A DNA stretch of 45,714 nucleotides. It comes from a virus (taxonomy: Duplodnaviria > Heunggongvirae > Uroviricota > Caudoviricetes). How positions within the stretch are numbered: the stretch's first letter is position 1; each line of letters starts with the position of its first letter. Both the position numbers and the translations under genes were made by a program. The notes beneath the pieces are model-generated. The model saw only the letters and a program-made list of their open reading frames with translations. It was not told the DNA's origin and searched no databases. Location of the stretch: IMG/VR virus record IMGVR_UViG_2718218126_000004, one strand, 5' to 3'. Positions 24,906-34,129 of this stretch are shown piece after piece.

Positions 24906-28586
<3,681 letters not shown>

Positions 28587-28612
<26 letters not shown>

Positions 28613-29132
28613 TCAGCAACCCCGGTATCAGTTCATCCAGCGCGGCTGCTTTGTTCATGGCTTTGATGATATCCCGTTTCAGGAAATCAACATGTCGGTT
28701 TTCCAGTTCCGGAAAACGCCGCTGCACCGACAGGGGGAGCCCGTCGAGAATACTGGCAATTTCACCTGCGATCCGCGACAACACGAAAGTACAGAATGCG
28801 GTTTCCACCACTTCAGCGGAGTCTCTGGCATTCTTCAGTTCCTGTGCGTCGGCCTGCGCACGCGTAAGTCGATGGCGTTCGTACTCAATAGTTCCTGGCT
28901 GGAGATCTGCCTCGCTGGCCTGCCGCAGTTCTTCAACCTCCCGGCGCAGCTTTTCGTTCTCAATTTCAGCATCCCTTTCGGCATACCATTTTATGACGGC
29001 GGCAGAGTCATAAAGCACCTCATTACCCTTGCCACCGCCTCGCAGAACGGGCATTCCCTGTTCCTGCCAGTTCTGAATGGTACGGATACTCGCACCGAAA
29101 ATGTCAGCCAGCTGCTTTTTGTTGACTTCCAT
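28587..29132 (-). CDS. Nu1: Terminase small subunit Nu1
   Basis: 181 aa, MEVNKKQLADIFGASIRTIQNWQEQGMPVLRGGGKGNEVLYDSAAVIKWYAERDAEIENEKLRREVEELR, matching lambda Nu1; immediately downstream of cos. Confidence 0.95.
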
Positions 29133-29309
29133 TGCTCATTCCACGGCCAAAAACAGAGAAAGGAAACGACAAAGGCCCAAAAGTTCGTTTTCAGCACCTG
29201 TCGTTTCCTTTCTTTTCAGGGGGTATTTTAAATAAAAACATTAAGTTACGACGAAGAAGAACGGAAACGCCTTAAACCGGAAAATTTTCATAAATAGCGA
29301 AAACCCGCG

Positions 29310-29321
29310 AGGTCGCCGCCC
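29310..29321. other. Lambda-type cohesive end site cosN (12-nt overhang GGGCGGCGACCT, shown as its reverse complement), with the cosB-like region 29133-29309 between it and Nu1
   Basis: Plus strand aggtcgccgccc at 29310-29321; the reverse complement of 29133-29352 reads like the recalled lambda left end (GGGCGGCGACCTCGCGGGTTTTCGCTATTTATGAAAATTTTCCGG...) joined to the lambda right end (...CGGATCGCCGGAAAGGACCCG). Confidence 0.85.
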
Positions 29322-29520
29322 CGTAACCTGTCGGATCGCCGGAAAGGACCCGCAAAATGATAATAATTATCATCTGCATGTCACAACGTGCATCTACGCC
29401 ATCAAACCACGTCAAATAATCAATTATGACGCAGGTATCATATTAATTGATCTGCATCAACTTAACGTAAAAACAACTTCAGACAATACAAATCAGCGAC
29501 ACTGAATACGGGACAACCTC

Positions 29521-29754
29521 ATGTCAACGAAGAACAGAACCCGCAGAACAACAATCCGCAACATCCGCTTTCCTAACCAAATGATTGAACAAATTAACAT
29601 CGCTCTTGATCAAAAAGGGTCCGGGAATTTCTCAGCCTGGGTCATTGAAGCCTGCCGCCGGAGACTGTGCTCAGAAAAAAGAGTTTCTCCTGAAGCAAAC
29701 AAAGAAAAGAGTGACATTACTGAATTGCTCAGAAAACAGATCAGACCAGATTGA
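29521..29754 (+). CDS. Small ribbon-helix-helix-like protein (possibly YlcI/YnfO-like)
   Basis: 77-aa ORF; basic N-terminus then TTIRNIRFPNQMIEQINIALDQKG...SAWVIEACRRRL, consistent with a beta-strand/helix/helix Arc-MetJ-CopG fold; opposite strand to the late operon, AT-rich. Confidence 0.5.
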   Translation: MSTKNRTRRTTIRNIRFPNQMIEQINIALDQKGSGNFSAWVIEACRRRLCSEKRVSPEANKEKSDITELLRKQIRPD

Positions 29755-29810
29755 AGCAATTTAGATAATCGTGCAGACTACGCCCCTCATATCACATGGA
29801 AGGTACTACA

Positions 29811-30221
29811 ATGGCTCAGGTTGCCATTTTTAAACAAATATTCGATAAAGTGCGAAATAATTTAAACTATCACTGGTTTTATTCTGAACTAAAACGTCAC
29901 AATGTCTCACATTACATTTACTATTTAGCTACAGAGAATATTCATCTTGTTCTTGAAAACGATAATACGGTTTTAATAAAAGGACAGGGTAAGGTTGTAA
30001 ATGTAAGATTTTCAAAAAATAAATGCCTTATAGAAGCCACCTTAAAAGGATTCAAATCAGGAGAGTTATCATTTTACGAATACAGGAAAAATCTTGCTAC
30101 AGCAGGGGTTTTCAGATGGATTACAAATATCCACGAAAACAAAAGGTATTACTATACCTTTGATAATTCATTACTCTTTACTGAGAACATTCAGAACACT
30201 ACACAAATATTTCCGCACTAA
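29811..30221 (+). CDS. Hypothetical AT-rich moron protein (possibly DUF1398/YbcV-like)
   Basis: 136-aa product from the ATG with a GGAAGG RBS; Tyr/Asn-rich, low GC; 40 bp downstream of the RHH gene on the same strand. Confidence 0.5.
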
Positions 30222-30570
30222 ATCATAACGTCCGGTTTCTTCCGTGCCAGAACCGGACTCGCTGGCATGATGAAATATGTGTACCCGGTAACCCCGGTGT
30301 GCATCGTTTTTGATTATTCCCGCACACTCGCGCAGAAGGAGTTCCCCGTCGGGCTACGGTCTCTGTTAATACGGGAATACGGCGACGATACAGCGCATGA
30401 TGTGTCAGGCTTGAATGCCTTTATCCGTTAAAAGGGATATCAGTTAAGTTATCCCGTGCAGGGTATAAGCCATTATCAAGCCCACCCGTAGATGGGCTTT
30501 GTAATGGATAGCCGTTGCTCAGTTCTAGTAATGCTTTGATTTTTTCGATAACGCAGTTTTGCGTTTGCCA

Positions 30571-31092
30571 TCAGCACGCGATATCGAGAGTCAACTGCAG
30601 TTGCTCGCGCCAGTACTCAACATTTGCTTCAATAACCGGCTTATCCCATCGCCAGCGAGCCATCTCTCTTGCCCCATTGCTGGCTTTTGATTTCCGGTCA
30701 TCGCGAATGCGACATGCTTGCTCATATTTCTGCTGCTCAGTCAGTTCACCGCGAAGCAGACTATCAATGTGCAGGTCGCACCACACAGCAAAACGAGCAT
30801 CACACCAACGGGCAAATGCAACTGAAAGTTTTGGATGTAGCCACGTACCACCACCCCTGTCCTTTCGTGCCTTGCTGGTTTTTACATACCTCGATTGTGA
30901 GGGATGTAAAATTTGAGATTCTTTCCCGGTCAACGCTTCGTCTAAAGCACGAACGTATTCAAGCGTTTCTGCCAAACGCATCCAGTTATCAATGCGTTTC
31001 CCAAATCTCTCAGCAACACCTGTGACGTTGATCCAACCATCAGTGTTGAAACTGACAATTTCACCTTTGTAATTAAGTGGCACGATATTCAT
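30571..31092 (-). CDS. KilA-N domain protein
   Basis: 173 aa; N-terminal region ...GWINVTGVAERFGKRIDNWMRL...GTWLHPKLSVAFARWCDARFAVWCDLHID resembles the KilA-N DNA-binding domain; lies between the lysis genes and cos. Confidence 0.7.
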   Translation of the reverse strand: MNIVPLNYKGEIVSFNTDGWINVTGVAERFGKRIDNWMRLAETLEYVRALDEALTGKESQILHPSQSRYVKTSKARKDRGGGTWLHPKLSVAFARWCDARFAVWCDLHIDSLLRGELTEQQKYEQACRIRDDRKSKASNGAREMARWRWDKPVIEANVEYWREQLQLTLDIAC

Positions 31093-31296
31093 AACGTTTA
31101 CCTACCATTTGAAATGAACCTTTGCCGCACAGGAAACCAGCCCACCGAGGCTCGCCAGCACTAACTGGTATCCTCAAAGGCCCATTCCAAAGGGGCAGGT
31201 TCGGTGTAAAAAAAACATGCGTTGCGGTACGCATTTATTGCAAAAAAGCCCCGCATCGCGAGGCTCATTAAATGGACTTTGTGATTTGCAAAAAAA

Positions 31297-32443: not shown

Positions 32444-33031
32444 AACCCCACCTCGCAGACAAAGCGGGTGTAAATTGAGGGAATACAACGTATCGCAAAA
32501 AAGCAGAAACGTAACAGACTCGGAGTCAGTGAATAACTCAGGTATTGAGTTATCAGCTAATATCGAGACTCAAAAAATGGAAAAACCAGCTCGACGGCGG
32601 GTTTAAGCTGTGTGACGAAGTAACCACTCTTAACAGCATAACCAATTTTTTACGTACGTAAACCACTGAATGATATTTATGAGAATGCTACCGAGTGTTC
32701 AAAACACCACCACAAATACATAAGAAAACCTCAACAAATAACCAATAAATAATTTCAGAGGTTATTTTTAGTTGATTTAAATTAAACTGCCGAATTATAG
32801 AACCCCCATAAATAACAGCCATTAATATAAATTAGCTAATAGGTTTATTTTTGTTCAAATAAGAGCCATAAATAGGTTTCGATAGAAAAAGTTCAGATAA
32901 AAATAGAGATCTACTTCACAAATTAAATGAGAAACTAAAACTTACATCTTGAAATAATCACATTGATTAGATGAATATTTATCGCGCAGTGACATCATTT
33001 TTTAATAATAGTTCAAAAAAAAGGGCTCACG

Positions 33032-34129
33032 ATGAAAAAATTAACAGTGGCAATTTCTGCTGTAGCTGCATCAGTACTGATGGCGATGTCTGCTCAGGCA
33101 GCTGAAATTTATAATAAAGACAGTAACAAGCTGGATCTGTACGGGAAAGTTAATGCTAAGCACTACTTCTCCTCTAATGATGCAGATGATGGTGATACTA
33201 CTTATGCCCGTCTTGGCTTCAAAGGTGAAACCCAAATCAACGATCAACTGACTGGTTTCGGTCAGTGGGAATATGAATTCAAAGGCAACCGCGCTGAATC
33301 TCAAGGTTCCTCCAAAGACAAAACCCGTCTTGCATTTGCAGGCCTGAAATTCGGTGACTACGGCTCAATCGATTACGGCCGTAACTACGGTGTAGCATAC
33401 GACATCGGTGCGTGGACTGACGTTCTGCCAGAATTCGGTGGCGATACCTGGACCCAAACAGATGTGTTCATGACTGGTCGCACCACTGGTGTTGCAACCT
33501 ATCGTAACAACGACTTCTTTGGTCTGGTTGATGGTCTGAACTTTGCTGCTCAGTACCAAGGCAAAAACGATCGTAGCGATTTCGATAACTACACCGAAGG
33601 TAACGGTGATGGCTTCGGTTTCTCTGCTACCTATGAATACGAAGGATTCGGTATCGGTGCAACTTATGCGAAATCTGATCGTACCGACACTCAAGTTAAT
33701 GCAGGGAAAGTTCTTCCTGAAGTATTTGCTTCCGGTAAAAATGCAGAAGTTTGGGCCGCAGGTCTGAAATATGACGCTAACAACATTTACCTGGCCACTA
33801 CCTATTCTGAAACCCAGAATATGACTGTATTTGCTGATCACTTCGTTGCTAATAAAGCTCAAAACTTCGAAGCTGTTGCACAATATCAGTTCGATTTCGG
33901 TCTGCGTCCGTCCGTTGCTTACCTGCAATCTAAAGGTAAGGATCTTGGAGTATGGGGCGATCAGGACTTAGTCAAATATGTTGATGTAGGTGCAACCTAT
34001 TACTTCAACAAAAATATGTCTACTTTCGTTGATTACAAAATCAACCTGCTTGACAAAAATGACTTCACTAAAGCACTCGGTGTAAGCACTGATGACATCG
34101 TTGCTGTAGGTCTGGTTTACCAGTTCTAA
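33032..34129 (+). CDS. nmpC: Outer membrane porin NmpC (OmpC/OmpF-type general porin), intact
   Basis: 365 aa with signal peptide [23 protein letters not shown], porin motifs and C-terminal VAVGLVYQF; opposite strand between Q and the lysis genes as in DLP12; uninterrupted here. Confidence 0.95.

Follow-up and report, generated by a model that had tools for sequence, protein, structure and literature searches.

Gene content of the locus

The window, which is the whole 45,714-nt stretch of DNA that was analyzed (IMG/VR record IMGVR_UViG_2718218126_000004), is a lambda-type prophage in reverse orientation. Two genes were found on its plus strand: ORF77 (positions 29521 to 29754), which runs from an ATG to a TGA codon and encodes 77 amino acids, and ORF136 (29811 to 30221), which encodes 136 amino acids. 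To the left of the pair, on the minus strand, lie the genes for the terminase large subunit (26687 to 28612) and Nu1 (28587 to 29132). The lambda left-end sequence had an exact 45-nt match at 29277 to 29321 of the minus strand, with 0 matches expected by chance, and cosN was therefore placed at 29310 to 29321, where the 12-nt cohesive end GGGCGGCGACCT is read on the minus strand and marks the right end of the virion DNA. A putative cosQ equivalent, the heptamer GGGTCCT (29345 to 29351, minus strand), is identical to the sequence labeled "cosQ; termination of DNA packaging" in the record of phage 434. To the right of ORF136, all on the minus strand, are a KilA-N domain gene (30571 to 31092; late-operon strand; Pfam KilA-N, 8.2e-22; PHROG 129), Rz, R and S. 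An earlier note on this DNA, made from its letters, had described two co-oriented plus-strand genes between cos and the lysis genes that oppose the late operon; both genes were present in the list of open reading frames, and the cosN match and the minus-strand neighbors agreed with the described position.

The open reading frame list also contained a longer reading of ORF136 (29796 to 30221, plus strand), of 141 amino acids. The start at 29811 was preferred; it was also chosen by RefSeq on an identical sequence and is preceded by a Shine-Dalgarno sequence, GGAAGG (29798 to 29803), at a spacing of 7 nt from the ATG. With this start, the spacer between the genes (29755 to 29810) is 56 nt long, and the gap of 40 bp given in the earlier note has to be corrected, as 41 nt belongs to the 141-amino-acid reading. 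The description of the pair as AT-rich applied to ORF136, which has a GC content of 31.1% compared to 51.8% for the window, and only mildly to ORF77 (43.6%). ORF136 was indeed rich in Asn (11.0%) and Tyr (7.4%).

Comparison of the 52 codons of the ORF77 core with the homologue in phage BP-4795 gave a dN of 0.097 and a dS of 0.78, which is a dN/dS of approximately 0.12, and the dN/dS values of ORF136 versus its lambda, Qin and ycgX homologues were 0.21 to 0.30. These values of 0.12 to 0.30 indicated that ORF77 and ORF136 are real genes and not chance open reading frames, and that both are under purifying selection.

ORF77 is a member of the YlcI/YnfO family

A profile search of both proteins, which had been proposed as a check, assigned each to a family. 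ORF77 scored 74.7 bits against Pfam DUF3950 (PF13132; cut-off, 25) and 35.7 bits against NCBIfam YlcI_YnfO_N (NF041551; cut-off, 30), and an identical protein is named "YlcI/YnfO family protein" by RefSeq. Its conserved part comprises residues 1 to 52 and is basic, while the tail varies between phage types. The protein has a pI of 10.55, and the highest Kyte-Doolittle average over 19 residues was 0.34, indicating the absence of a hydrophobic segment.

The conserved core of about 50 residues has the size of a minimal ribbon-helix-helix (RHH) domain. A monomer model of low confidence (pLDDT of 64) contained an extended segment at residues 1 to 18, a helix at 19 to 32, a G-S-G-N turn and a second helix at 34 to 54. 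This predicted order of strand, helix and helix is compatible with an RHH subunit, in which the strand forms only in the dimer. The YlcI alignment was compared by hhalign with Arc, Mnt, CopG and a small RHH profile of seven sequences. ORF77 RNIRFP-NQMIEQINIALDQKG was aligned in register with Arc FNLRWP-REVLDLVRKVAEENG at a nonsignificant P value of 0.021, and the match to the RHH profile was likewise in register and nonsignificant (P = 0.012); the hhalign probability was 2 to 3%. These alignments paired the strand, the first helix and the glycine turn with those of Arc, Mnt and the RHH profile. Searches of PDB sequences with the ORF77 protein and with a profile gave no match, and none was obtained when the low-confidence model was submitted to Foldseek. 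The earlier designation of ORF77 as RHH-like was thus plausible with respect to the helix pattern and the in-register match but was not demonstrated, as the matches were nonsignificant and the PDB and Foldseek searches were empty.

Arc and Mnt of phage P22 resemble ORF77 in their size and basic N-terminal arm and in an N-[IL]-R-[FW]-P strand motif followed by two helices that flank a glycine turn, all in register. They differ from it in that the similarity is statistically nonsignificant and that ORF77 has no known operator or regulated target. Given its pI, the predicted strand and helices and the in-register alignment, ORF77 would probably dimerize and bind DNA as a small repressor or autoregulator, like Arc and Mnt.

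ORF136 has the fold of YdfO

ORF136 scored 147 bits against Pfam DUF1398 (PF07166; cut-off, 22), covering profile positions 1 to 119 of 119. It was aligned end to end with E. coli K-12 YdfO (E = 2.9e-67; 76% identical), for which a soluble NMR structure has been solved (PDB 2HH8), and it shares the YdfO fold. The highest 19-residue Kyte-Doolittle average was 0.39, with no membrane segment and no signal peptide. The product is a soluble 16-kDa protein that contains a duplicated alpha-alpha-beta-beta-beta unit and has the orphan YdfO fold.

The DUF1398 family gave just 189 clusters among 1.84 billion representatives, and a search of BFVD for the fold of ORF136 gave no match at an E value of ≤0.001. 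No enzyme, toxin or membrane signature was detected in ORF136, and its structural relatives included none with a known defense role and no toxin fold. In the genome collection, genuine DUF1398 genes were confined to the Enterobacteriaceae, namely, Escherichia, Shigella, Citrobacter, Kluyvera, Pseudocitrobacter and Salmonella diarizonae. DUF1398 matches in nonenterobacterial assemblies were set aside as probable stray lambda DNA and not part of the true distribution.

Closest relatives and prevalence

The 1.3-kb region is 100% identical to DNA of E. coli GPEC617, in which ORF77 is annotated as "YlcI/YnfO family protein" and ORF136 as "DUF1398 domain-containing protein." Of 5,426 complete E. coli genomes, 4,893 contained DNA matching this region, at a median of two places each, and the version in the window was present at 98 to 100% identity in the active phages ev099, Kati, Chlobot and PhiR49_1.

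The closest layout in K-12 is that of the Qin prophage, which has the same order and orientation (nohA/Nu1, cos, ynfO and ydfO, followed by the lysis genes) and the same spacing, the stop-to-stop distance being 467 to 470 nt in ynfO-type loci. YnfO of Qin differs from ORF77 at 4 of 77 residues, which result from four nonsynonymous changes in the DNA with no synonymous change. The ydfO gene is a distinct allele with a dS of 0.70 relative to ORF136. This disparity between 0 synonymous changes in ynfO and a dS of 0.70 in ydfO places a mosaic or recombination joint between ORF77 and ORF136. Qin also differs downstream, where it has gnsB, ynfN and cspI and the window has the KilA-N gene.

Lambda and the DLP12 prophage carry homologues of both genes, likewise located between the lysis genes and Nu1/cos and transcribed in the same direction: in lambda, an unannotated ylcI-like open reading frame, lambdap79 and lambdap78, and in DLP12, ylcI-ybcW-ybcV. 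The lambda proteins are 93% identical to the ORF77 core and 76% identical to ORF136. These loci differ from the window in having an intervening gene of opposite orientation (ybcW/lambdap79), a short YlcI protein of 64 amino acids with a different tail, and bor downstream, which is absent from the window. The earlier note had placed the pair where lambda carries bor; lambda does have bor there but carries it in addition to homologues of both genes and not instead of them. In phage 434 and the Stx phage BP-4795, the corresponding position holds a YlcI gene that is oriented against the late operon and followed by the same conserved segment, but these phages differ from the window in having no DUF1398 gene.

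The gene pair is therefore already known and very common, being carried by lambda and most E. coli lambda-like prophages. In genomes of the lambda type, it is the standard pair of small accessory genes that are transcribed leftward and located immediately inside the right cohesive end. The earlier note had offered YlcI- and YbcV-like prophage genes as its alternative reading, and this was borne out by family scores above the cut-offs, the alignment with 2HH8 and the layout of Qin.

The two genes occur independently of each other

The pair was intact in 79 of 80 near-identical ynfO-type viral loci. As these loci are 96 to 100% identical to each other, this intactness reflects common descent, although there may be some functional cooperation of the pair within the near-identical lambda-type lineage. 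Proteins of metagenome sets in which DUF3950 and DUF1398 appeared to be fused (P0010 and P0014) were rejected as fusions, the TGA codon having been read as Trp by the gene callers.

Beyond this lineage, tblastn matched YlcI to 154 phage records, against only 43 for DUF1398. The records with YlcI but no DUF1398 numbered at least 111, and the Stx1a-, Stx2- and Stx2c-converting phages among the matches belong to this group. In BP-4795, the DUF3950 gene lies between Rz and the HNH and TerS genes; DUF1398 is absent, and the HNH-TerS-TerL packaging module is unrelated to that of the window. In phage 434, cosQ is followed by DUF3950, the conserved segment and then bor, and both DUF1398 and ybcW are lacking.

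The converse arrangement was detected in chromosomes. None of 23 divergent chromosomal DUF1398 loci (23/23) had a YlcI homologue, none had a match to Nu1, TerL, Rz, R or S of the window within 5 kb, and no conserved neighbor was common to these loci. The K-12 gene ycgX stands alone beside iraM and bluR without YlcI, and the DUF1398 locus L034 likewise had no YlcI homologue. DUF1398 was under purifying selection also in loci without YlcI. Even where lambda and DLP12 carry both homologues, about 650 bp and an opposite-strand gene separate them. The pair consists of a YnfO/YlcI (DUF3950) gene and a YdfO/YbcV (DUF1398) gene, and we consider it highly likely that these form two separable units and not a coupled toxin-antitoxin system.

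ORF136 is an optional insert next to a backbone gene

The presence of YlcI without DUF1398 in phages 434 and BP-4795 indicated that ORF136 is an optional insert, and alignment of the downstream DNA delimited this insert, which comprises ORF136 (together with ybcW in lambda) and lies between ylcI and a conserved noncoding segment. This segment (30285 to 30400) is an imperfect long inverted repeat of approximately 115 bp and forms the right flank of the ORF136 cassette. It was detected in 432 phage records, mostly unannotated. It directly follows ylcI in 434 and BP-4795, adjoins Rz in BP-4795 and 1720a-02, and has bor downstream of it in 933W and lambda. Because of a 1-nt indel in the lambda copy, the segment cannot contain a common open reading frame, and little covariation was observed.

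The term "cargo," which had been applied to both genes, was appropriate for ORF136, an insertable AT-rich cassette that is absent from 434 and BP-4795, but not for ORF77, which is part of the conserved backbone. The combination of deviant composition and presence or absence between conserved flanks that identifies a moron was found for ORF136 and not for ORF77, which is conserved across module types. ORF77 is a lambdoid backbone gene at the junction of the lysis and packaging regions, with or without ORF136. The truly variable slot is downstream of ORF136. It is occupied by the KilA-N gene in the window, by bor in lambda and by gnsB, ynfN and cspI in Qin, and the KilA-N gene was present in just 11 of the 80 near-identical ynfO-type loci.

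Noncoding signals and transcription

An AT-rich, Fur-box-like palindrome with the core GATAATAATTATC lies between cosQ and ORF77 (29353 to 29371). It was the sole site in the window to match 16 of the 19 positions of GATAATGATAATCATTATC, with 0.03 such sites expected by chance. The palindrome is at the same place in lambda and is conserved in Qin, and it was not found upstream of the YlcI homologue of BP-4795. It overlaps a promoter-like site pointing toward Nu1. Comparison of the noncoding flanks of the window and BP-4795 detected no common upstream motif, the conserved downstream segment being the only element in common, and an Rfam search of positions 29000 to 31200 gave no match.

No sigma-70-like promoter was found on the plus strand upstream of either gene, and the counts of promoter-like matches equaled those in shuffled sequence; the transcription unit is hence one that we infer. 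The spacer had a folding z-score of +2.6, being less structured than all 200 shuffles, and contained no terminator-like site on the plus strand. With both genes on the same strand, an unstructured spacer of 56 nt, a good Shine-Dalgarno sequence and no terminator, co-transcription of ORF77 and ORF136 in the window appears likely.

Two hairpins follow the pair. The first (30230 to 30258, plus strand), GTCCGGTT-(13 nt)-AACCGGAC, starts 9 nt after the stop codon of ORF136 and has no U-tract. It was present in both the minimum-free-energy and the centroid folds of a 76-nt stretch that is not unusually stable (z = -0.49). This hairpin is kept in lambda, and Qin has one compensatory change from T-A to C-G. 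The second, a stable hairpin formed by inverted repeat I3 (30470 to 30507), lies between the convergent ORF136 and KilA-N units, had folding z-scores of -3.5 on the plus strand and -4.9 on the minus strand, and is probably a two-way terminator.

Published observations on the homologues

Regulation of the homologues has been recorded in several studies. The mRNAs of ybcV and ybcW were approximately 10-fold lower in a pdhR mutant (PMC7660256), ydfO was induced 116-fold by an ionic liquid (PMC4077768), overexpression of DicC altered ydfO expression (PMC11430063), and an hha ydgT mutant showed derepression of ycgX (PMC3686432). In lambda, the ORF136 homologue lambdap78 was nonessential by CRISPRi (PMC10695390) and is dispensable for lytic growth. 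The 2024 y-ome lists ynfO and ydfO as "uncharacterized" (PMC11551758), and YcgX was given "no consistent inference" in 2025 (PMC12356324). A frequently repeated role of overexpressed YdfO in resistance to oxidative stress, the one functional claim for this protein in the literature, was rejected as a citation slip that mixes up YdfO with YfdO: Wang 2010 names YfdK, YfdO and YfdS of CPS-53 and never mentions the ydf genes. For DUF1398, the names "head protein" and "putative envelope protein" that occur in phage records are unsupported.

Discussion

The analysis of this locus indicated a backbone gene of the YlcI/YnfO family and an optional DUF1398 cassette, and several other interpretations were weighed against it. 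One is that ORF77 serves packaging by binding DNA at cos itself or close by, with the palindrome beside cosQ as one candidate site, and so regulates terminase expression or packaging, with ORF136 as an unrelated passenger. YlcI genes do adjoin packaging modules with unrelated terminases (Nu1/A in lambda and HNH-TerS-TerL in BP-4795), and they have also been reported in capsid-forming PICIs with TerS and TerL (PMC13612085). The conserved palindrome between cosQ and ORF77, with its overlapping promoter-like site toward Nu1, also fits a packaging role, but such promoter-like matches were no more common than in shuffled sequence, and the BP-4795 homologue has no such palindrome upstream even though its putative DNA-reading strand is identical. 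Furthermore, 933W-type phages have the conserved flank and no YlcI, and minimal cos fragments are packaged without a YlcI-type gene. A role in packaging is accordingly regarded as unlikely.

A role in superinfection exclusion or antiphage defense from the prophage, or in antidefense early in infection, for the pair or for ORF136 alone was considered to be similarly improbable. The pair occupies a place used by lambdoid phages for accessory genes, bor among them, and lies at the right end of the DNA, which in lambda enters the cell first. The AT-rich ORF136 cassette is found in only some phages, and homologues are transcribed from cryptic prophages. On the other hand, the search with PADLOC detected nothing beyond noise, and no structural relative has a known defense role. 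Neither ORF77 nor ORF136 has a hydrophobic segment by Kyte-Doolittle analysis, which argues against membrane or envelope localization of the type seen in typical Sie proteins, and ORF136 has no signal peptide. The divergent chromosomal paralogues are found among stress and biofilm genes and not in defense islands, and no phenotype has been reported.

A further interpretation treats the pair as a host-interface unit, in which the YlcI core would be a minimal RHH repressor of the genes at the first-entering end and DUF1398, with its orphan fold, would bind and disable or redirect a specific enterobacterial factor, for example, one of defense or of the stress response. This interpretation, if true, would explain the exchangeable and diversifying nature of the phage cassette and also its repeated chromosomal domestication (YcgX and the Kluyvera and Pseudocitrobacter paralogues), and we hold it to be improbable.

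The interpretation favored by the earlier note, in which the pair is a toxin-antitoxin or exclusion module, was not supported; in its type II toxin-antitoxin form, ORF77 would be an RHH antitoxin and autorepressor and ORF136 the toxin. Like RelBE, ParDE and CcdAB, the pair has a small, possibly RHH gene 5' of a larger co-oriented gene, here with a short spacer and no terminator, and it was intact in 79/80 near-identical viral loci; the order of a small basic protein and a larger partner is, as layout alone, no evidence for a toxin-antitoxin system. ORF136 also had a match to HEPN_AbiA_CTD, which was below threshold (E = 0.014; 15.8 bits versus a cut-off of 27); this match and one to Csx23 (E = 0.025), the only additional ones in the family searches, were both subthreshold noise. 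Unlike in those systems, the genes are separable in both directions: DUF1398 persists without YlcI in 23/23 divergent loci, at ycgX and in L034, and at least 111 phage records have YlcI but not DUF1398. The genetic coupling is not tight, with 56 nt between the genes here and about 650 bp, with ybcW on the opposite strand, in lambda and DLP12, and ybcV has its own regulatory region. In RHH antitoxins, the tail binds the toxin, but the tail of ORF77 is hypervariable and is reduced to 14 residues in lambda even though the DUF1398 proteins are 76 to 78% identical. Neither protein matched a known toxin, antitoxin or PADLOC family, ORF136 has neither a known toxin fold nor a membrane segment, YdfO was produced in quantity for the NMR structure 2HH8, and the papers that a search by these gene names retrieved do not treat them as a toxin-antitoxin pair. 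A type II toxin-antitoxin system is thus very improbable.

We therefore retain the interpretation of two separable genes. For ORF136, the soluble product could well bind a host macromolecule when made from the prophage, as in functions of the lysogenic-conversion type. The handle on function provided by the window is just the separability of the two genes, and the practical value of the case is one of annotation. Both families are among the commonest uncharacterized genes of E. coli and both are carried by lambda; for this best studied of phages, knowledge of what they do would close a gap of long standing.

Annotation and distribution of the gene pair

Comparison of window positions 29521-30221 with the K-12 Qin locus (L003) detected 0 synonymous and 4 non-synonymous differences between ORF77, the YlcI/YnfO family (DUF3950) gene, and Qin ynfO, and a dS of 0.70 between ORF136, the DUF1398 gene, and Qin ydfO. 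At the sequence level, these values indicated that a mosaic joint separates ORF77 from ORF136 when the window is compared with Qin.

Database proteins P0010 and P0014, which appeared to be fusions of DUF3950 and DUF1398, were rejected as artefacts in which the TGA stop codon of ORF77 had been translated as Trp (…RPD-W-SNLD…); P0014 represents 761 member sequences. In PHROG 413 and in RefSeq phage records (e.g., NC_001416 and NC_019711), DUF1398 proteins carry the name 'head protein' or 'putative envelope protein'. The DUF1398 protein is soluble, without a membrane segment, and was also found as a chromosomal gene remote from phage genes; both labels are unsupported. An increase in oxidative-stress resistance upon overexpression of YdfO has been described (PMC4077768, citing PMC3105296). 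This role was discounted, as YdfO, encoded in Qin, had been mistaken for YfdO, encoded in CPS-53, and ydf genes appear nowhere in PMC3105296.

The right end of lambda, including ylcI and ybcV, was detected in approximately 30 non-enterobacterial assemblies (among them Kitasatospora, Flavobacterium, Cohnella and Pedobacter) and, likewise, in many ENA contigs of ~3.5 kb, the combined set comprising loci L013-L033 and L044-L047 and proteins P0019-P0048. These occurrences probably represent stray lambda control DNA and no real distribution of the two genes.

Non-coding elements and variable cargo

A Fur-box-like palindrome, CAAAATGATAATAATTATC, adjoins cosQ at 29353-29371 and matches 16 of the 19 consensus positions. 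It was the only such site found in the whole 45.7 kb, versus 0.03 expected by chance, and its position is common to the window, lambda and Qin. The palindrome also shares bases with a promoter-like - strand site directed toward Nu1.

Downstream of ORF136 lies a non-coding segment of ~115 bp (30285-30400) that forms an imperfect long inverted repeat and is kept in 432 phage records, including those of 933W, 434, BP-4795 and lambda, where its annotation is nearly always missing. The segment is flanked by the packaging side on one side and by bor or Rz on the other. A shared ORF was ruled out by a 1-nt indel in lambda, and an RNA-structure test was limited by scant sequence variation.

AT-rich DNA (26 to 34% GC at 32600-33199) leads into an nmpC-like porin gene on the + strand (33032-34129; region, 32600-34129), which is named 'porin' in the identical RefSeq record. 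The AT-rich stretch and porin gene are placed between Q and the holin gene, the same arrangement as in DLP12.

The convergent units of ORF136 and KilA-N are separated by a very stable hairpin (30470-30507; z = -3.5 for the + strand and -4.9 for the - strand), which borders the KilA-N insert and probably acts as a terminator in both directions. The gene in this insert, encoding KilA-N plus an ORF11CD3-like region (30571-31092; PHROG 129, 'transcriptional regulator'), is on the - strand, that of the late operon, and occupies the slot that corresponds to the bor position in lambda. It was found in only 11 of 80 closely related loci, and this KilA-N gene is the true variable cargo of the site.
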